64,000 nucleotides of DNA from positions 80,765 to 144,764 of the IMG/VR virus record IMGVR_UViG_3300028591_000093; one strand, given 5' to 3'. This stretch comes from a virus (lineage: Duplodnaviria; Heunggongvirae; Uroviricota; Caudoviricetes). Positions 10,168 through 25,773 of this stretch are shown piece by piece. The position numbers and the translations under genes were made by a program. The notes beneath the pieces are model-generated. The model had not been told where the DNA came from and ran no database searches. It worked only from the letters and a program-made list of their open reading frames with translations. Every line of letters starts with the position of its first letter. Position 1 is the first letter of the stretch.

Positions 10168-12248
10168 TAATAAAAGGAAAGCCAGTAGCAGTATATGATA
10201 TTGAGGTCTTTTCTAATTGTTTTCATTGTGTAGTAAAGGATACAGAAACAGGAGAAATATTTAAATTTGAAATATCTGAAAGAAAAAATCAGATAAAAGA
10301 ATTGATTCAGTTCTTCTGGAGAACTAAGTATCTGATGTGTGGATATAACTGTATCCATTATGATAACCCTATTATAAACTATATCCTCGATTATAGAATC
10401 ACACTTTCCAACTTAGGATATAGTAGGATTTGTCAAAGTTTATTTAATCTAAGTAACACCATTATTGGTACAGATGACTTTGATTCTTGGAAAAAGTGGA
10501 AATATGCTAAAAACTTTAGTACTCTTGACCTTTTAACTATGCTCTTTTCTCAAAAATTAAGAGTAGGTTTGAAGGAAATGCAGGTCACAATGCAGTATAA
10601 AAATGTACAAGAGTATGATGGTGACTTTAGAAAACCAATTCCTGTAACAGATATAGATAATATGATTCAGTATAATATCAATGATGTATTGAGTACTGAA
10701 GAACTTCTCTATAGATGTAAAAAACAGATTGAACTTAGACTTGGTATTGAAGAAGAATATGGAGTTGATGTTCTAAGTAAGGATGGTATGTCTATTGGCA
10801 TGGAAATTTTAAAGGTTAAGTATCTTGAAAAGACTGGCAAGTCTTGGAATGATATTAAAGACCTTAGAAGTCCATGTGATGCCATTGATTTAAGTAAAGT
10901 TATATTTCCAGTTATTAACTTTAACACTCCTGTGTTGCAACAATTACTAGAAGAAATGAAATCCTTAATTGTCAGTCCTGGCAGAAAGGGTTATGAAAAA
11001 CATTTCTTACTACAAAATGTAGAAGTTGTAGTTGGTGTTGGTGGTATTCATACAAAGAATAAACCAGAAGTTATTATTCCAAATGAAAATCAAGATTTAC
11101 TAGATAGTGATGTTAATTCCCTATATCCTTCTCTTGTTATTAGTTATGGTCTAGTTCCGCCTCATCTTGGGAAGCAGTTCCTAGAGATATATGGTGATGT
11201 AAGAACAGAAAGACTTGAAGCTAAAGCTACTGGTAAGAAGATTAAAAATGAGACTTTAAAGTTGAGTTTAAATGGACTTACTGGTAATCTTCAGAATGAG
11301 TATAGTTGGGTTTACTCTCCTGAAACTGTAATGAAAATAAGAATCAATGGACAATTGTTCTTGTTAATGCTTGCAGAAAGATTGATTGCAATTGGAGCTA
11401 CTATCATTCAGTTAAATACTGATGGTGTACTCTATTTAATTGATAAAGATAAGAGACCTCTTTTGGATAAAGTGTTAAAAGGTTGGGAAGAAATAACCAA
11501 GCTTACACTTGAAACAGAAGAATTTGAAGCTTTCTATCAATATGCCATCAATGACTATTTGGGTATTAGTAAAGGTTATGCTCAAAAGAAGAAAGAATTT
11601 GAAGAAGGAAAAGCCTTTAATAAGAAAGGTGAACAGTATACATCACTATCTCAAATAAAAGATGACTTCTTGAAAAAGAAGGGTCTTTTTATTGATACTG
11701 TCACTCTAGGTAAAGGTATGCAACCAATGATTATACCTAAAGCCATCAATGATTATTTATCTGATGGAATACCTATTAGAGATACAATAAGGGCATGTAG
11801 GAATATAAATGATTTTATTACTTATCAGAAAGTTGATAAGAAATTTTCTGTAGAATATAATGGTAAGTTAATCAACAGAATTAACAGATATTATGTATCT
11901 ACAAAAGGCTATTATTTGTATAAGTGTGTAGTAAACAATGTTTATGTTGATGAGGAATATGCAGAAATAGAGGTTAAAGCAACTGGTCAAAGGATGGAAC
12001 TTCCTGTTAGAGTTCTAATGGAAGAAAATCCAGGAGATAAGGTACATGTTATTAAATATTTTTACAAAGGTACACCAAGAGAAAGAAGAGATGACTATTC
12101 TAGTATGTTATCTGCTTCTGGTGTAAAAATTGTAAATAACCTTGAAGAAGTGCAAGAATTCCCAGACGATATAAACTACTCTTATTATATAAATGAAGCT
12201 AATAAAATTATTGCTCCATTTGCTCTTAGACAGTTATCATTGTTTTGA
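10164..12248 (+). CDS. polB: DNA polymerase family B
   Basis: Exonuclease YDIE and YN-x-x-x-YD; polymerase DVNSLYPS, KLSLNGLTG and NTDG. Confidence 0.95.
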   Translation: MIIKGKPVAVYDIEVFSNCFHCVVKDTETGEIFKFEISERKNQIKELIQFFWRTKYLMCGYNCIHYDNPIINYILDYRITLSNLGYSRICQSLFNLSNTIIGTDDFDSWKKWKYAKNFSTLDLLTMLFSQKLRVGLKEMQVTMQYKNVQEYDGDFRKPIPVTDIDNMIQYNINDVLSTEELLYRCKKQIELRLGIEEEYGVDVLSKDGMSIGMEILKVKYLEKTGKSWNDIKDLRSPCDAIDLSKVIFPVINFNTPVLQQLLEEMKSLIVSPGRKGYEKHFLLQNVEVVVGVGGIHTKNKPEVIIPNENQDLLDSDVNSLYPSLVISYGLVPPHLGKQFLEIYGDVRTERLEAKATGKKIKNETLKLSLNGLTGNLQNEYSWVYSPETVMKIRINGQLFLLMLAERLIAIGATIIQLNTDGVLYLIDKDKRPLLDKVLKGWEEITKLTLETEEFEAFYQYAINDYLGISKGYAQKKKEFEEGKAFNKKGEQYTSLSQIKDDFLKKKGLFIDTVTLGKGMQPMIIPKAINDYLSDGIPIRDTIRACRNINDFITYQKVDKKFSVEYNGKLINRINRYYVSTKGYYLYKCVVNNVYVDEEYAEIEVKATGQRMELPVRVLMEENPGDKVHVIKYFYKGTPRERRDDYSSMLSASGVKIVNNLEEVQEFPDDINYSYYINEANKIIAPFALRQLSLF

Positions 12249-12257
12249 TATACTGTA

Positions 12258-12695
12258 ATGGAAGTTAAATATACTGAAATAACATTTAATAGTGTTGAAG
12301 ACTTACTGGCATATCAGAGAAGTCAAAAAACACAAAAAGGACAGGATATGTTTACTGTAACATCTTCTAGTCCTGAGGTAAGACCTCAAATACCTGCTAC
12401 TAGAGTAATAGAAGCTGGTAGAAGAACTCCTGAAGTTACTGGTAGAAATATTGGTTGGACTTTAGGTGCTCTTAGAGCTGCCCTTGTTGGCAAGAAAATC
12501 ACTTGGAATCATTGGAACAATGGTGTATATCAGGACAAATCTGGTATTGTTGAAACTGTTGGTCCTTGTGTAGATGGAACCAGTGGTTGGTTTGGGGATA
12601 CTTCTGTTTCTGTAAAGTTCAGAGGTGCTGGCAAACCTATTCCTCTGTATAGGCATGAACTTAAAAAAGCCGTTATAGAGGATGCAGTGGATTGA
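12258..12695 (+). CDS. Hypothetical protein
   Basis: 145-aa ORF. Confidence 0.75.
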   Translation: MEVKYTEITFNSVEDLLAYQRSQKTQKGQDMFTVTSSSPEVRPQIPATRVIEAGRRTPEVTGRNIGWTLGALRAALVGKKITWNHWNNGVYQDKSGIVETVGPCVDGTSGWFGDTSVSVKFRGAGKPIPLYRHELKKAVIEDAVD

Positions 12696-17900: not shown

Positions 17901-18926
17901 ATGACATTTACTATTCCAAGAACAGTAAGAAAAGTTACTAGGGAGTTCCTTCTGGAACACAACACAGAAGAAACTTACATGCAAACTTATCTTGGAGTTC
18001 CTGTTAAAAAAGGTTTATTTATAAGCCCAATTAGACATGATAAAAGACCTACTGCTTCTTTCTTTAGAAGTAGAGATGGAGCTTTACTGTTTCATGATTT
18101 TGGAATAGGTTTTAAAGCTGACTTTGTAGGGGTGGTTAGACAATTGTTTAACCTCTCCTATAGTCAAGCTTTGAATAAAATAGCTTCTGACTTTGGTCTT
18201 AATCCTGGACAGGAGCAATGTCTTCCTAAGATTAAAGTTAGTGTCTGTGAAGAAACAATTACTGCACATGAAGCAGCACAAATCCAGATAGAAATGCAAC
18301 CTTTTACAGAAAAAGAATTAGCATGGTGGGCTTCTTATGGAATAACGCCAGAAACTCTGAGAAAGTACAGAGTATATTCTTGTAAAAATGTATTTCTAAA
18401 TGGTAACTACTTTACTAGTAGTACACCAACTAGCCCAGCATTTGGCTATTTTGGTGGACTAAAAGAAGGTAGTGAAATATGGAAAATTTATTTTCCTAAA
18501 AGAAAAATGTATAGGTTTATAAGTAACTGGAATGGCACAATGCTACAAGGAAGTCAGCACCTTCCAAAAAGTGGCAATTTCTTAGTTATTACTAAATCTA
18601 TGAAAGATGTTATGGCACTCCATGAATTTGGAATTCCTGCTATAGCACCTGGCAGTGAAACATCTTTTGTAACTAATCAACAACTAGACAGACTTAAAAG
18701 TAGATTTAGGAATATAGTTGTCTTCTATGATAATGATTTACCAGGCATTATGGGAATGAGAAAAATCAAGAAGATGCATCCTGAATTAACTTATGTTTGG
18801 ATTCCTAGAAAGTATGGTGCAAAAGATTTCTCTGACTTATACAAAAAATTTGGAAAGGATGTCGTGAAGGATATGCTAATCCAATTTACTAATAGATATA
18901 GCAATGGATGCAAAAACATTAAATGA
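17901..18926 (+). CDS. DNA primase (TOPRIM)
   Basis: ITKSMKD, YDND and KDFSD; N-terminal SPIRHDKRPTASF domain. Confidence 0.85.
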   Translation: MTFTIPRTVRKVTREFLLEHNTEETYMQTYLGVPVKKGLFISPIRHDKRPTASFFRSRDGALLFHDFGIGFKADFVGVVRQLFNLSYSQALNKIASDFGLNPGQEQCLPKIKVSVCEETITAHEAAQIQIEMQPFTEKELAWWASYGITPETLRKYRVYSCKNVFLNGNYFTSSTPTSPAFGYFGGLKEGSEIWKIYFPKRKMYRFISNWNGTMLQGSQHLPKSGNFLVITKSMKDVMALHEFGIPAIAPGSETSFVTNQQLDRLKSRFRNIVVFYDNDLPGIMGMRKIKKMHPELTYVWIPRKYGAKDFSDLYKKFGKDVVKDMLIQFTNRYSNGCKNIK

Positions 18927-20139: not shown

Positions 20140-20739
20140 ATGGAAGTAAGAAATGTGATTATCGTAAGTAATGCAGCTAACAGAAGATATACTCTTGAGA
20201 CCGCAGCTGAGACTCTTGGCCAACTTAAGGCTGATATGAGAGAGGCTCATATTGATTATGAAGGTATGACCTTCATGGAGGGTCTTACTAAGACTGAGCT
20301 CCTCAATGATAGTAGCTTGCTACCAAGAGATGTTGTTAGAGGTGAAGGCACCACTAATGAACTGGTATTCTTGCTGACTGTAGCAAATAAGAAGATTAAG
20401 TCTGGTACTGACTATGTAACTCTTAGAGCAACTGTTGGTGCAAGCCAGGCAATGAAGGATTATATCCAAAAGACCTATGGTAGAAACTACACCAATGTAG
20501 GTGCTAGTGTTCTTGAGGCAGTTGTAAAGCACTTCAGTGCTAAGACCGCAGCTCCTGCACAAAATGCTTGCAGTAGTGCTGTAGCATTGAAGAAGTTAGC
20601 TGATGCTCTGAAGCATAACGGCTATCTGACTACTTCTCAGTACAATGATGTTGTTGGTTCTATTGGCCAAGCATCTGTTGATGAGAAGATTGGTTCTTAT
20701 ACCAAGTCTGAAATTGATGCTATTGTAGCTAGCATCTAA
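20140..20739 (+). CDS. Ubiquitin-like (beta-grasp) precursor with internal KIKSG and a ~110-aa C-terminal extension
   Basis: Residues 1-89 show a beta-beta-alpha-beta-beta pattern ending LVFLLTVANKKIKSG; first gene of the E2-JAB-E1 cluster. Confidence 0.6.
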   Translation: MEVRNVIIVSNAANRRYTLETAAETLGQLKADMREAHIDYEGMTFMEGLTKTELLNDSSLLPRDVVRGEGTTNELVFLLTVANKKIKSGTDYVTLRATVGASQAMKDYIQKTYGRNYTNVGASVLEAVVKHFSAKTAAPAQNACSSAVALKKLADALKHNGYLTTSQYNDVVGSIGQASVDEKIGSYTKSEIDAIVASI

Positions 20740-20749
20740 TGTTGTTTTT

Positions 20750-20790
20750 AAGGTTAGGGAGGTAAAACTCCCTAACCTTCTTTTTATTTT
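20750..20790 (+). terminator. Rho-independent terminator after the Ubl gene
   Basis: 12-bp perfect stem AAGGTTAGGGAG / CTCCCTAACCTT followed by a T tract. Confidence 0.88.
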
Positions 20791-20804
20791 CTAATCTTAA
20801 GAAT

Positions 20805-22178
20805 ATGACAGGTTTAGAGCGATTAGAAAAGGAAATTTTAACTCCTTATATTGATACCTTGAATACTGAAAATATTGGTAAAATATATAAAGTATTTCAA
20901 GATTATTATGGAGAGCAAAGGGTTGATTTGCAATTTAGTCATAAATATAATGATGCTGAAGAGCTTGAACTTGTAAAAGAAAATACAAAGGAAGCTCATG
21001 CAAAACTACTTGCAAAATATGTTTGGAGAAATTGTTCTCCTAGACATATTAGTTATATTCCTAATCTTAGTAGAGGTTATTATGACTATTATACTTTTAA
21101 TAATTGGGATAGTTCTAAGTTAGTAAATGAGTATTTTGAAAAGCTTGTTACATTAGACAAAACTGATATTACAAGGAAACTTAATGTATTTTTCAACAAT
21201 AATCCTATGTTTGTGATTATTGTTCACTTCCCACATGTTGTTATTGAGAATGAAGATGGAAGAAAGCATGAAGCTAATAATTTCTATATCAAAATTCCAC
21301 TTACCAAAGATGCAAAGTTCTGTGGTAACTTCCTTGTAAAAAGAACTACTTTTACTAAGAATGAGTTACAAATAGGTTATATGCACTCTCATTGTCCATC
21401 TAGTACTTGTGACCCTGATAGAGATTGGACTACAAGTTGCCTTGGTTCAGGTCCTATTATTAGAACTGAAAGCAGATTAAGTAGTGTATGTGATTTAGAT
21501 GTATGGATGTTATTCTGTAATGAGCTTGAAAGATATATTTCTGTTGAGTCTCTTAGTGGAGGTCCATACATAAGAATGTCACAAATTCCTGGTAATACTA
21601 ATGAAGGTAGTCTGTTAGGATATAACAATGTAAAACAAATGAATATTCCTCTTAACAAGGAGAATTTTAGAGGTATGAACAGCACTGTTTATAATACTTA
21701 TTTTCATCCTTTTATTAGAGAATATGCAAGTAGTTTCAACTTACCATTTAGAAGATTAGATGGTCAAATCAAACCTGGATTCACATATGATGAATTTCTA
21801 ATTAACATCAGTCAAGCATTTATTACTTATATTAACAATTTAAGTAGAATCTCTAATGATAGTCTTTCTATGATTAAAGAAACTGTTCTTGTTGAAGCCG
21901 CTATGGTCAATGAGTCAATTCATTTAATAAATAGAAGACAAGGAAGTAGAGATGCTTGGAGAAGTTATGTACCAAAAATTGGTCATGTAATTGGAATATT
22001 TCATGGTGAACCATTAACTTTCCAAATTGAAGATAACATTCCATTAGTTGAAGAGAATCATGCATTTAGAATCATGCATCCTAGATGGGCTGGCCCTATC
22101 CTTCAACTGATTATAGATTTACTTAATATAGAATATGGCAGAGAAGTTAATTCTAGTCAAGCAAGACTCTACATATAA
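20805..22178 (+). CDS. Prokaryotic E2/UBC-like conjugating protein
   Basis: YMHSH...SCLGSGP resembles the E2 HPN...CL active-site segment; lies between the Ubl and JAB genes. Confidence 0.6.
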   Translation: MTGLERLEKEILTPYIDTLNTENIGKIYKVFQDYYGEQRVDLQFSHKYNDAEELELVKENTKEAHAKLLAKYVWRNCSPRHISYIPNLSRGYYDYYTFNNWDSSKLVNEYFEKLVTLDKTDITRKLNVFFNNNPMFVIIVHFPHVVIENEDGRKHEANNFYIKIPLTKDAKFCGNFLVKRTTFTKNELQIGYMHSHCPSSTCDPDRDWTTSCLGSGPIIRTESRLSSVCDLDVWMLFCNELERYISVESLSGGPYIRMSQIPGNTNEGSLLGYNNVKQMNIPLNKENFRGMNSTVYNTYFHPFIREYASSFNLPFRRLDGQIKPGFTYDEFLINISQAFITYINNLSRISNDSLSMIKETVLVEAAMVNESIHLINRRQGSRDAWRSYVPKIGHVIGIFHGEPLTFQIEDNIPLVEENHAFRIMHPRWAGPILQLIIDLLNIEYGREVNSSQARLYI

Positions 22179-23637
22179 GATAGTAGTTCCTGAAAATGTA
22201 GAGGAGAAAATTAGATTCCTTTGTGCGCAAGTACATGAAGTAGAATGGTCAGGAATCTTGTTCTACAAGAAAGCAGGAACAATGGAAAACAGTGATTTAG
22301 TTATCACTTGTGTTGATATATTCCCGATGGATATTGGCACATCAACTTACACTGAGTTTGATAACTCTCCTGATGCTGTAAGTTATATGTGTGACCATCC
22401 TGAATTACTTAGCCCTGATGTTTATAATGGGCTCATTCATAGCCATAACAATATGGCAACTTTCTTTAGTGGAACAGATACTTCCACACTCTTAGATGAG
22501 GGTAAAGATAGAAACCATTTTGTTTCTCTTATTGTAAATAATGCTGGTACATATACAGCAGCAATTACAAGAAAGGCTGTTAAGGATTTGACAATTAGTG
22601 GTACACTCAAATATAAAACTTTTGATGATAAGGAAGTTGAACTGGGAGATATTGAACCAGTTAAAACTCAATCCACAGTTGTAGAATATTTCATGCTAGA
22701 AGTAGAGAAGCATGAAGCTCAAGTCAGTCTGAAGAAAGAACTTGAGGAAGCATTTTCTTCCACAATGGAAGTACTCAAATCTAAAGTACCTGCTGACAAT
22801 GCAGTACAAATTAGAGATAACTTTGTTGAGGATATGGTAAATAGTCTCATCAGAGGTGTATCTGATGTTAAATTTGAGGAAACTAAGAAGAGACTTGATG
22901 ATATTAGAGAAGCAAAGAAGAAGAAAACAACTCCTGTTTATGGTAGTGGTTATCCTTATGCAGGTAGTTATCCAACTGCACAAAGACCTTCTTTTGGTAC
23001 TGGTGTAGGTGGTGGTTATGCAGGTGCTTCTGCTTCAACAAACTTTGCAAGAACTAAAGGTCAAGTTTACATTCCTGGTAAAGGCTGGGTAGATAAAGAT
23101 ACTGATGAAGTAATTACACCAGCTAGTTCACTTCTTGGTAATAAAAATAAACCTAAAGTAACTTCAGAACCTCTTGGGCCCTCTGAACCTGATGAACTCA
23201 ATTTTGATTGGGAAGATGCTGGTTCTGCTTGGGCCCATTGCAGGCAAGAAATGAAAGAGGAGAATGCCAAGAACCATGAAGAAAAAGACAAGAAAATCGA
23301 AGAAGAAATACAGGCATTGATTGACAAAGCCATGTATTATTTGTTAACTGGAGATATTGATGGTCCAAACTTGAATAGTGATTATGAAGCTTGGGCTATG
23401 CAATCAGGATATGTATATTCTAGACAATTTTCTACTTTAGAAGATTTTAAGAGATTTGCAGATATGCAAGTTGATTATATTTATGAAGTAGCAAGTGATA
23501 AGTTAGATGGTTTGGAAGGTGAAATTGAAAACTTCTCTGATGAGTTTATGGATAGACTTGCAGAGGAGATGAACAAACTGTCTAATAAGAATGTATATAT
23601 CAAACACTATATCTCCCAAATTGAAAGATTAGCTTAA
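22135..23637 (+). CDS. JAB/MPN+ metalloprotease (deubiquitinase-like) with C-terminal low-complexity and helical regions
   Basis: EWSG ... HSHNNMATFFSGTD matches the E...HxH-x7-S-x2-D JAMM motif. Confidence 0.88.
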   Translation: MAEKLILVKQDSTYKIVVPENVEEKIRFLCAQVHEVEWSGILFYKKAGTMENSDLVITCVDIFPMDIGTSTYTEFDNSPDAVSYMCDHPELLSPDVYNGLIHSHNNMATFFSGTDTSTLLDEGKDRNHFVSLIVNNAGTYTAAITRKAVKDLTISGTLKYKTFDDKEVELGDIEPVKTQSTVVEYFMLEVEKHEAQVSLKKELEEAFSSTMEVLKSKVPADNAVQIRDNFVEDMVNSLIRGVSDVKFEETKKRLDDIREAKKKKTTPVYGSGYPYAGSYPTAQRPSFGTGVGGGYAGASASTNFARTKGQVYIPGKGWVDKDTDEVITPASSLLGNKNKPKVTSEPLGPSEPDELNFDWEDAGSAWAHCRQEMKEENAKNHEEKDKKIEEEIQALIDKAMYYLLTGDIDGPNLNSDYEAWAMQSGYVYSRQFSTLEDFKRFADMQVDYIYEVASDKLDGLEGEIENFSDEFMDRLAEEMNKLSNKNVYIKHYISQIERLA

Positions 23638-23638
23638 T

Positions 23639-25072
23639 ATGGAAGAAATAGATGCTACTTTACTTAGTGTAGATGAAATTATAAATCTATATCCAGAAGC
23701 TGAATTACCTGCTGTAGCTGAGGCTGCTCGTGCTGCTTATGCAACAAGAGTAGCTGAAGCTGCTAATATTCAACAATTAGCACAAGGCCCTGCTGTAGAT
23801 TCAGGTTCTGCTCCTGAGAGTATATCAGAAGCTATTAACAGACTTGTTAATGAGCAAAATACTGTACAAGAAACTCCTTCAGAAGTAGCAGAAGCTGTTT
23901 CAGCTGAAACACTTATAACAGATGTTGCTGGTTCTGGTCCTGCTATTGCAGTAGATACTACAATTGCTACAGAAGCAGTTGCGACTGCTCCTACTAGAAG
24001 AAGAAGGTTTACTAGTAGAACTACTCCTATTGTTGAGATGATTCCAGAAAGTGCTCCAGCAGAAGAACAAACTGTAAATGCAAGTGCTCCTGCTTCTGCT
24101 GACCCTCAAATTCCGCAAGGAATTATGGAAGCAGCTGCTGCATCAGAACCTGTAGCTGAAGCTCTTGGAGAATTGTCTCAAGCAATTGAAGAAACTGTTG
24201 CAACTGATGCTGGTACTAGTGTTGCTGCTAGTTCAACAGATGATGCTGCACTAGCTGAAGCTGCTCCCGAAAGTGCTCCTGAAGCAGCACAGCCTGCACA
24301 AGGTCCACAGGTAACTGTTGAAGTACAAAATAATAGAATACCTAATATACCAGTAGATGCAGTGTCTACTGATATTGGTAGTAGATTCAGTGGAGCAACT
24401 TGGTTTGATGCAATGCAAAGAACTAAAATTATAGTTGCTGGATGTGGAGGTATTGGTAGTTGGTTTACTTTGTTAGCAGCAAGAGCTAACCCTGAAAGTA
24501 TCCAACTATTTGATGCAGATGTTGTAGAATCTGCAAATCTTAGTGGTCAGTTATTCTCCATAGACCATGTTGGTATGTCCAAAGTAGCTGCACTTGCAAG
24601 TGTAGTACAAACTTTCTGTAACTATAATAGAATAGAGACTTTCCAAAGTTTCTATACTGGTAGAACCAGACAAGTTGGACCTATTATGGTTTGTGGTTTT
24701 GATAATATGGTTGCTAGAAAAGTATTCTTCTATAAATGGAAAGAATATGCAGAGAGTCATCCTAATGAGAGATGTCTCTTTATTGATGGTAGATTGAATG
24801 CAGAACAATATCAAGTATTCTGTATTACTGGAGACAGACATGACCTTATGAGTAGATATGAGTCTGAGTGGTTATTTGAAGATGATGAAGCTGATGGAGT
24901 ATTGTGCTCTTATAAGCAAACTTCTTATTGTGCTGCTATGATTGGTGCAATGATGAATAACTTACTTGTTAACTTTATCTTTAATGGGGAAAGTAATATC
25001 TTGTATCCAAGAGATTTACCATTTTTAACAGTATATGAAGCAGACCAACTATTCTTAAGAACAAGGGTATGA
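23639..25072 (+). CDS. ThiF/E1-like activating enzyme with a ~240-aa Ala/Glu/Pro-rich N-terminal extension
   Basis: GCGGIGS, D-x-D-x-VE-x-x-NL-x-x-Q, K, CGFDN, DGR; candidate catalytic Cys in VLCSYKQT. Confidence 0.9.
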   Translation: MEEIDATLLSVDEIINLYPEAELPAVAEAARAAYATRVAEAANIQQLAQGPAVDSGSAPESISEAINRLVNEQNTVQETPSEVAEAVSAETLITDVAGSGPAIAVDTTIATEAVATAPTRRRRFTSRTTPIVEMIPESAPAEEQTVNASAPASADPQIPQGIMEAAAASEPVAEALGELSQAIEETVATDAGTSVAASSTDDAALAEAAPESAPEAAQPAQGPQVTVEVQNNRIPNIPVDAVSTDIGSRFSGATWFDAMQRTKIIVAGCGGIGSWFTLLAARANPESIQLFDADVVESANLSGQLFSIDHVGMSKVAALASVVQTFCNYNRIETFQSFYTGRTRQVGPIMVCGFDNMVARKVFFYKWKEYAESHPNERCLFIDGRLNAEQYQVFCITGDRHDLMSRYESEWLFEDDEADGVLCSYKQTSYCAAMIGAMMNNLLVNFIFNGESNILYPRDLPFLTVYEADQLFLRTRV

Positions 25073-25773
25073 CACAGTTTGAGAGAAATCTGGCAGAATG
25101 TTACAAATATGCTGGACAGTTAGACAATCAAACTAATTGTGATAATATCTTTAGAATAGCTCATCAAAGTTCTATGTACTTCAAAGTAATGAAACTTACA
25201 AATGGTGATGTTGAAATTCCACTCTTTCTTTATCGTACTTGGCTTGGTTCCAAGAGAGATAATGATAGAATGGAATATGTTATCAATGTGCCATTCTCAG
25301 ATGAGGTACCTATAAAAGTTGCTGCTAAAACTTCTTTACTTACTTATATGAATAATAAGTATCAACCTTATAGAAGATTAGTAGCAGTTACTTTGAATGA
25401 TAAAAGGTATTATGTTGCACCAGGAATTATTCTTGATGCAAACCTTAATATACTGTTAATGTATACTATCAAGCATCAGAGTAAAGATATAACTGTTTAT
25501 GTAAACAGTGAACTTTATCATAACCCTGATGATTTTGATAAGATGCTTACAGGAAAAGTTTTTGCCTTTCTAGCATCAAATGACATTGTTACTGAAAATG
25601 AGGATGATGTTCAACCAAACTTAATTGTTAGTAAGAACATAACTGACTTTTTAGTATTGCCAACTAAAGTATTAAAAAGAGATTCTATGTTTGATTTGAA
25701 TGTTAATTGCAACAGGATTATCAGAGATAGACTCTTAGCAGCTTTTGATTTGAAATATAACAATGCCCACTAG
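25069..25773 (+). CDS. Hypothetical protein coupled to E1
   Basis: 234-aa ORF with ATGA overlap to E1; ends in TAG. Confidence 0.75.
   Translation: MTQFERNLAECYKYAGQLDNQTNCDNIFRIAHQSSMYFKVMKLTNGDVEIPLFLYRTWLGSKRDNDRMEYVINVPFSDEVPIKVAAKTSLLTYMNNKYQPYRRLVAVTLNDKRYYVAPGIILDANLNILLMYTIKHQSKDITVYVNSELYHNPDDFDKMLTGKVFAFLASNDIVTENEDDVQPNLIVSKNITDFLVLPTKVLKRDSMFDLNVNCNRIIRDRLLAAFDLKYNNAH

Follow-up and report, generated by a model that had tools for sequence, protein, structure and literature searches.

Genes for a putative ubiquitin-like activation and conjugation pathway in the replication module of crAss-like phages

The viral DNA analysed in the present study, referred to as the window, is a stretch of 64000 nucleotides (positions 80765–144764) of the IMG/VR record IMGVR_UViG_3300028591_000093, a viral record of 169 kb, estimated by CheckV as 89% complete, whose relatives are crAss-like phages. 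Between positions 20140 and 25773 of the window lie five ORFs (open reading frames) which, to judge from their gene content and predicted folds, probably form a phage-encoded cassette for the activation and conjugation of a Ubl (ubiquitin-like protein), expressed alongside the replication genes. A preliminary description of this DNA, made from its letters, had claimed a complete operon of this type, and the five co-oriented + strand ORFs, together with all of the motifs that it had named in the first four, are indeed present. They encode a Ubl precursor (ORF1, 20140–20739, 199 amino acids), an E2-like protein (ORF2, 20805–22178, 457 amino acids), a JAB/JAMM (MPN+) metallopeptidase (ORF3, 22135–23637, 500 amino acids), an E1-like adenylating enzyme (ORF4, 23639–25072, 477 amino acids) and an orphan protein (ORF5 or ‘X’, 25069–25773, 234 amino acids). 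ORF3 starts 44 nt before the end of ORF2, a single base separates ORF3 from ORF4, and the ATGA at 25069–25072 is common to the stop of ORF4 and the start of ORF5. Only ORF1 is set apart from this tightly packed group, and a terminator scan placed an intrinsic-terminator-like hairpin (20750–20789, + strand) between the Ubl gene and the enzyme genes. Upstream of the cassette is a primase gene (17901–18926), and genes for recombination and ribonucleotide reductase follow from 25763 onward.

Megablast of the cassette region against GenBank phages gave no match. At the protein level, its genes are widely shared. A relative of the E2-like protein is encoded by 157 IMG/VR contigs, and we examined synteny in 80 of these and in three ENA/Logan loci, 83 in total. 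The order Ubl, E2-like, JAB, E1 was found in 79–83 of the 83 loci at identities down to approx. 25%, the misses being due to contig ends or, in locus L022, to an interrupted E1 frame; chance adjacency is ruled out by an order conserved across so many loci. Among GenBank phages, the E2-like protein occurs in 45 records and the E1 in 74, and the carriers include crAss001, DAC15, DAC17, the PhiCrAssBcn isolates, Kehishuvirus and the Fpv phages of Flavobacterium psychrophilum. In crAss001, gp79–gp75 match all five of our profiles with E values from 1e-74 to 1e-191. In the Flavobacterium phage Fpv1, gp58, gp57, gp56+gp54 and gp53 match the Ubl, E2-like, JAB and E1 profiles respectively (E values from 1e-13 to 4e-56), with retention of the KSG, the GYMHSH...C and the E1 cysteine. 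The labels that these genes carry in GenBank are ‘thiamine biosynthesis protein’ for the E1, ‘metalloprotease domain containing protein’ for the JAB and ‘hypothetical’ for the others, which confirms, for GenBank phage records, the earlier statement that only ThiF and metalloprotease annotations exist for such genes.

In cellular genomes, a pattern scan of 185579 species genomes, which would miss very distant cellular relatives, found the E2-like family in only four contigs (L088–L091), all from metagenome bins, labelled Bacilli, Acholeplasmatales, Spirochaetia and Clostridium. These are probably mis-binned crAss-like phages, since L089 equals the viral contig L073 in size (94451 bp) and range.

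The product of ORF1 has the appearance of a Ubl made as a precursor. An alignment of 31 collected homologues showed that its first 89 residues, ending K-K-I-K-S-G, are well conserved, with K85, I86 and G89 invariant, and that these are followed by a linker of variable length and then by a second conserved region. In the window protein, residues 85–89 read K-I-K-S-G, with the Gly89 codon at 20404–20406, and the motif K-x-[IV]-[KR]-S-G is invariant and present in all 82 ORF1 homologues. An AlphaFold model calculated from the homologue alignment had a pLDDT (predicted local distance difference test) score of 74 and placed the elements of residues 1–82 in the order β-β-α-β-β...β, i.e. in the β-grasp fold (here a predicted one) that characterizes Ubl modifiers. 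The tail at residues 83–89 was floppy and of low pLDDT and the remainder was helical, residues 90–199 comprising the variable linker and a helical C-terminal domain. Pfam, PHROGs, PADLOC and NCBIfam returned no informative family for ORF1. The assignment of residues 1–84 as a ubiquitin-like β-grasp with a flexible tail ending in the invariant Gly89 is, as a prediction from this model, well supported.

Further evidence on the boundary at Gly89 comes from a natural fission of the gene. In the related phages L016, L072 and L078, the Ubl ORF ends after 91 residues, with the S-G followed by two residues and a stop codon; 3′ of it there is an HNH endonuclease gene and then an ORF that starts with a fresh methionine and corresponds to the usual C-terminal domain. 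The Ubl gene is thus split, two codons past the invariant glycine, by a homing-endonuclease gene (L016:5556–6857; also in L072 and L078). Because Rfam detected no group I intron at this insertion in L016, and the non-coding flanks of approx. 14 and approx. 16 bases are too short for an intron core, we take it to be a free-standing gene. When L016 was compared with the intact L023, which is 98% identical, homology was lost inside the K-K-I-R-S-G codons and restored exactly at the codons for M-(S/T)-R-A-E-A-Y, and all four of the I-R-S-G codons in L016 were synonymously altered. That these codons were changed only synonymously indicates that the peptide was kept under selection while the DNA changed. 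The split genes indicate that the Ubl and C-terminal halves can work as separate polypeptides and that the boundary between them lies right after the invariant glycine, and so the fission, as a sequence-level observation, supports processing at Gly89. Together with the fold searches and the invariance of the glycine, it bears out the earlier view of ORF1 as a β-grasp Ubl precursor. L016 has in addition a group I intron (Rfam, 84.8 bits) at 12061–12304, downstream of the cassette.

The hairpin that follows the Ubl gene has a GC-rich stem of 12 bp and then a T run. A hairpin plus T run was present at the same place in 42 of 54 distinct related intergenic regions, and the stems differed between clades while pairing was kept. 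Most of the remaining cases were artefacts in which longest-ORF start calls shorten the spacer. Such a terminator-like hairpin would be expected to attenuate transcription, and its conservation directly after the Ubl gene makes it plausible that the Ubl substrate is made in excess over the enzymes.

ORF3 carries the complete catalytic motif of a JAMM protease, with E37 followed by H102-S-H104, seven residues, S112, two residues and D115. All of E37, H102, S103, H104, S112 and D115 were invariant in 11 diverse homologues that were otherwise 34–41% identical. Three profile matches, to Pfam Prok-JAB (18.3 bits, below the cut-off of 25), to the PADLOC JAB model (E = 0.003) and, in a PDB profile search, to the archaeal JAMM1 (5lda, E = 0.026) ahead of RPN11 and CSN5, were weak and none exceeded a curated threshold, but they were concordant, and in the last of these searches the active-site motif was aligned. 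JAMM1, RPN11 and CSN5 are all JAMM enzymes that cut Ubl proteins. The JAMM domain occupies approx. residues 15–150 and is followed by a low-complexity middle region and a conserved helical C-terminal domain. On the strength of its invariant motif and these best PDB profile matches, the identification of ORF3 as a JAB/JAMM protease, as put forward in the preliminary description, is well supported at the sequence level.

The JAB gene is itself a site of insertion. In Fpv1 it is interrupted between gp56 and gp54 (L087:3027–4057), just before the L-I-H-S-H active-site codons, by a probable group I intron (Rfam RF00028, a full-length match of 43.4 bits where the gathering score is 50) with an endonuclease gene inside it, encoded on the other strand, and the two exons are annotated separately in GenBank as hypothetical proteins. 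In a close relative of the window phage, a contig of 168493 bp in ENA (sample ERZ27257202), the JAB is called as pieces of 102 and 409 amino acids, between which an ORF of the LAGLIDADG type lies on the other strand. This break is near the Fpv1 position, and its probable cause is a further insertion of an intron or endonuclease at the H-x-H site.

The E1-like character of ORF4 was readily apparent from profile searches. Residues 238–477 form a single ThiF-type domain, which scored 57.8 bits against Pfam ThiF (PF00899; cut-off 28.1), and 47 PDB sequences of the E1 superfamily matched at E ≤ 0.001, including MccB, UBA5, PaaA, TcdA, UBA1/6/7, Cap2, ThiF and MoeB. Invariant in the family are R249-F-S, GxGGIGS, DxD, N-x-S-G-Q, K315, D355-N and C423-S-Y-K-Q-T. 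The loop in the window protein reads GCGGIGS, and Cys423, within VLCSYKQT (codon 24905–24907), is also kept in Fpv1 and lies 68 residues past the aspartate of the D-N pair. In MoeB and ThiF, the crossover-loop cysteine that forms the thioester or persulfide lies approx. 57 residues past the same aspartate. Cys423 would be the counterpart of this residue, a placement by inference since no alignment with a solved E1 reached the Cys423 region. The conserved core is approx. 235 residues long, and the whole E1 of Fpv1 has only 228 amino acids. Residues 1–237 of ORF4 (23639–24349) are a low-complexity extension rich in alanine, glutamate, proline and threonine (52 Ala, 29 Glu, 20 Thr and 19 Pro), which is variable in length, much shorter or absent in relatives, and probably disordered. 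These sequence matches make it well supported that ORF4 has a minimal adenylating domain of the ThiF/E1 type in which one cysteine is invariant, in agreement with what had been proposed for it.

ORF2 is a member of a large family, in which clustering at 50% identity leaves 2892 representatives (E ≤ 0.001). Its candidate active site comprises H194-S-H196, within the sequence GYMHSH (residues 191–196), and Cys212 (codon 21438–21440), in the C212-L-G that follows; a second invariant cysteine is Cys238. In 90 relatives, approx. 25% identical to the window protein, the invariant residues were N149, E150, H194, S195, H196, C212, G214, G216, P217, C238 and E240, and H194-S-H196 and C212 are kept in Fpv1 as well. 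The candidate active-site cysteine is therefore preceded by an HPN-like motif, with a His–Cys spacing of 16–18 residues that is longer than in classical E2s. The model of ORF2 (pLDDT 62) has N-terminal helices, three long strands at 136–184, a loop and two helices, and the poorly modelled loop, between the predicted meander and the next helix, carries H-S-H and Cys212. A shape search of the Atlas listed bacterial UQ_con proteins among its matches, with a TM (template-modelling) score of 0.48 by hit, and a language-model search gave weak Prok-E2_D leads with scores of only 0.81–0.86. The C-terminal domain (approx. 290–445) matches no known fold, and PHROGs, PADLOC and NCBIfam gave no informative family, the PHROGs that matched being unannotated orthologues from Fpv phages. 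An E2-like nature of ORF2 is moderately supported, by a medium-confidence predicted fold.

ORF5 is a real and conserved member of the cassette. An ORF of 253–278 amino acids starts on the stop codon of the E1 gene in 73 of 78 loci, and two rounds of jackhmmer linked the ORF5 of the window to 76 of the 78 ORFs that follow an E1 gene; its earlier description as a translationally coupled member of the set is accordingly correct. The gene after it varies, being a DUF1064 gene in the window and UDG in crAss001, which indicates that ORF5 travels with the E1. Identity between clades is 16–22%, far below that of the enzymes. No relative was found in Pfam, PHROGs, PDB profiles or the Atlas, PADLOC and NCBIfam were uninformative, and the Atlas model of ORF5 itself had a pLDDT of 0.36. 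With hhalign, ORF5 and Fpv1 gp52 gave a probability of 3.5% with alignment of only a short Y-x-G-x-G-x-I, a lead at most. A complex prediction for the E2-like protein, the E1 core and ORF5, in which ORF5 was scored, reached 0.24 against a mark of 0.32, a value that bears neither for nor against binding.

Of the systems described previously, Bil (BilABCD; PMC11601596) is the closest to the cassette in gene order and roles. Both comprise Ubl, E2, JAB and E1 in this order, so that the phage genes reproduce the four-gene Bil operon, subject to the reservation over the E2, and in both there is no recognizable E3 and the Ubl is a single β-grasp domain with a C-terminal glycine. However, Bil is encoded by the host, whereas the cassette is encoded by the phage and lies inside its replication module, and the E1 of Bil has a tandem architecture where that of the phage gives a single ThiF match. 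Unlike in Bil, the phage E2-like protein is 457 amino acids long and belongs to a phage-restricted family unconnected by sequence to known E2 families, the Ubl carries, when made, a helical C-terminal domain of at least 110 residues, and a fifth gene is conserved.

Type I Bub (formerly 6E.1), with its BubAB, BubCD and BubE operons, has a Ubl–E2 fusion, a JAB–E1 fusion, a DUF6527 protease and an oxyester chemistry with an E1 that lacks the catalytic cysteine (PMC11601596). In the phage, by contrast, Ubl, E2-like protein, JAB and E1 are all separate genes, an invariant cysteine is retained in the E1 as well as in the E2-like protein, and Pfam found no DUF6527-type protease in the cassette. The Cap2/Cap3 pair of type II CBASS shares the JAB partner, and the phage E1 matches the PADLOC Cap2 ‘E1-E2’ models (best E = 1e-10) as well as Cap2 chains in the PDB. 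In the phage, however, the E2 and E1 are unfused, a dedicated Ubl stands in place of the CD-NTase C-terminus, and no nucleotidyltransferase or effector was found in the cassette with Pfam.

PRTRC, which occurs on plasmids and integrative elements and consists of a ThiF-family protein together with the PRTRC proteins A and B (B being the Pfam family Prok-E2_D), is likewise a set of E1, E2-like and JAB proteins on a mobile replicon, and both it and the phage cassette adjoin replication or partition genes of their replicon; the NCBIfam echoes of it are weak (PRTRC_ThiF, E = 4e-6; PRTRC_A, E = 0.08) and far below the curated cut-offs. The tail-assembly pair of lambda and T1, TAPI (a Ubl plus a C-terminal domain) and TAPK (JAB plus NlpC/P60), is phage-encoded too, and its conserved-glycine Ubl, which a linker joins to a C-terminal domain, is a predicted substrate of the neighbouring JAB (Iyer et al. 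2006, PMC1779556). Both this pair and type I Bub therefore resemble the cassette in that the Ubl is made as a precursor to be freed by the JAB, but TAPI and TAPK lie in the tail module and have neither E1 nor E2, whereas the cassette lies in the replication module and has an E1 and an E2-like protein. As it misses defining features of Bil, Bub, Cap2 and PRTRC, we set the cassette apart as a variant.

We propose the following pathway. The 199-residue Ubl precursor would be made in excess over the enzymes by virtue of the conserved hairpin after its gene, and the JAB would then cut after Gly89, as the invariant residues and the gene fission suggest, freeing an 89-residue β-grasp Ubl from the helical domain. 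The ThiF-type E1, probably a homodimer such as ThiF and MoeB, would adenylate the carboxylate of Gly89 and then hold the Ubl as a thioester on Cys423, from which it might be handed to Cys212 of the E2-like protein, an E2 fold being moderately supported. Attachment of the Ubl to lysines of target proteins is a speculative last step, and for the choice of target the fast-evolving ORF5 and the large domain at the C-terminus of the E2-like protein are similarly speculative candidates. The JAB could also take the tag off again. That the tagged proteins belong to the host, in the course of take-over or counter-defence, rather than to the phage is a guess. More tentatively still than the cassette itself, and at something below an even chance, we propose that crAss-like and related phages of Bacteroidota run a complete Ubl conjugation of their own, with a hitherto unrecognized E2 family restricted to phages, a minimal E1 whose ATP site is remodelled and ORF5 as a fast-evolving specificity factor, by which host proteins, e.g. 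defence or replication factors, would be tagged during infection.

Several observations weigh against a conjugation pathway. No target, E3 or effector could be identified, and the Ubl ends in Ser-Gly, not Gly-Gly. The Pfam E2 families (UQ_con and Prok-E2_A to E) were unmatched at E ≤ 10 by either 17 or 90 members of the E2-like family, a PDB sequence-profile search with the E2-like alignment came back empty, and hhalign of the family against an alignment of Prok-E2_D/PRTRC-B, built from a genuine Prok-E2_D protein named PRTRC system protein B, gave a probability of 0.15%. Foldseek of the ORF2 model, one of the checks that the preliminary description had put forward for the folds, found nothing significant in the PDB or in AlphaFold clusters. 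Of the E2 assignment made there, the invariant HSH...CLG stands and is now accompanied by a predicted UBC-like fold, but similarity to Pfam, PDB-profile or Prok-E2_D sequences is absent, and by sequence ORF2 is outside every described E2 family. In the E1, the set of ATP-site residues is incomplete, since R249, K315 and D355 are invariant but the arginine of the canonical N-x-x-R-Q is replaced by an invariant glycine throughout the family (N-[LM]-S-G-Q, or N-T-G-G-Q in Fpv1). This arginine is required for adenylation in MoeB, and adenylation by ORF4 is therefore not to be taken for granted.

Other chemistries or roles of the same genes were also considered. One alternative is that the cassette acts in counter-defence, the JAB stripping the conjugates of host CBASS Cap2, Bil or PRTRC-type systems while the phage Ubl, E1 and E2-like protein act as decoys or competitors. 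Bacterial E1/E2/JAB systems are indeed anti-phage (PMC11601596), the fast evolution of ORF5 fits an arms race, and a Prok-E2_D protein is encoded by Bacteroides thetaiotaomicron, which is among the hosts of these phages. A decoy, however, could do without a catalytic cysteine conserved in E1 and E2-like protein alike and without a precise and conserved processing site, the phage E2-like family has no profile similarity to the one host-type E2 family that we tested, and nothing links the cassette to a particular host system. We regard this explanation as unlikely, although interference with host Ubl defences is possible as a biological role rather than as a different mechanism. Among 14 control genomes, that of B. 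thetaiotaomicron was the only one with a Prok-E2_D (PRTRC-B type) protein, which is a possible host counterpart.

No less unlikely, in our estimate, is a Ubl sulfur-carrier pathway, in which the JAB would expose the glycine, the E1 would adenylate it and a thiocarboxylate would donate sulfur to a nucleoside, cofactor or metabolite, as modelled by ThiS/ThiF, MoaD/MoeB, CysO/Mec+ and QbsE/QbsD, with the 457-residue protein and ORF5 as sulfur-using enzymes. Sets of a Ubl, a JAB and an E1 that have no E2 are known to serve sulfur transfer in bacteria, sequence does not secure ORF2 as an E2, and the best curated matches of the E1 are ThiF equivalogs, albeit far below their cut-offs (NF006395, 59 against 159 bits). 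Against this, the partner protein has a predicted UBC-like fold and an invariant cysteine, the E1 has no rhodanese domain, and the Ser-Gly tail of the Ubl again differs from Gly-Gly. Furthermore, the lack of sulfur-relay genes noted earlier for the vicinity of the cassette extends to the complete 169-kb record, where searches for the ThiS/MoaD, rhodanese, cysteine desulfurase and PP-loop ATPase families gave no match. We have not lowered our estimate any further because the host could supply these partners.

Finally, a chemistry of the MccB/PaaA type, in which the Ubl or a peptide, adenylated at its C-terminus by the E1-like domain, would end as a stable nucleotidylated or cyclized product and would not be passed to other proteins, as in microcin C7 or pantocin biosynthesis, is very improbable, for although the solved proteins nearest in sequence to the E1 domain are MccB and PaaA, their matches span only the shared Rossmann nucleotide-binding part (residues 257–341), a stretch also matched by UBA5, UBA1/6, Cap2, ThiF and MoeB, the candidate substrate is a folded 89-residue β-grasp and not a short peptide, and those pathways have neither a JAB nor a cysteine-bearing UBC-like partner.

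Conjugation of a Ubl is known in prokaryotes as a bacterial weapon against phages, in CBASS Cap2/Cap3, in Bil and probably in Bub. If our reading of the cassette as a conjugation pathway is right, the same tagging chemistry is in the hands of phages that belong to one of the most abundant groups in the human gut, and would be the first complete Ubl conjugation pathway in any virus of prokaryotes. In the literature that we searched we found no description of the cassette in phages, although it may have been mentioned earlier elsewhere. The conjugation reading, if right, would also correct the widespread misannotation ‘thiamine biosynthesis protein ThiF’, and three families of ‘hypothetical’ genes would receive names. 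Direct tests are possible, since the cassette is carried by cultured phage–host pairs, namely crAss001 with Bacteroides intestinalis, DAC15 and DAC17 with B. thetaiotaomicron, and the Fpv phages with F. psychrophilum.

We also noted the use of stop codons in the window. When the whole window is scanned for open frames that run from stop to stop over 150 codons or more, TAG closes 8 of 17 on the − strand and 3 of 34 on the + strand, an excess on the − strand that fits TAG recoding of late genes. The cassette is unaffected except for the TAG stop of ORF5, and an extension of ORF5 by such recoding was discounted, as readthrough adds only two residues.

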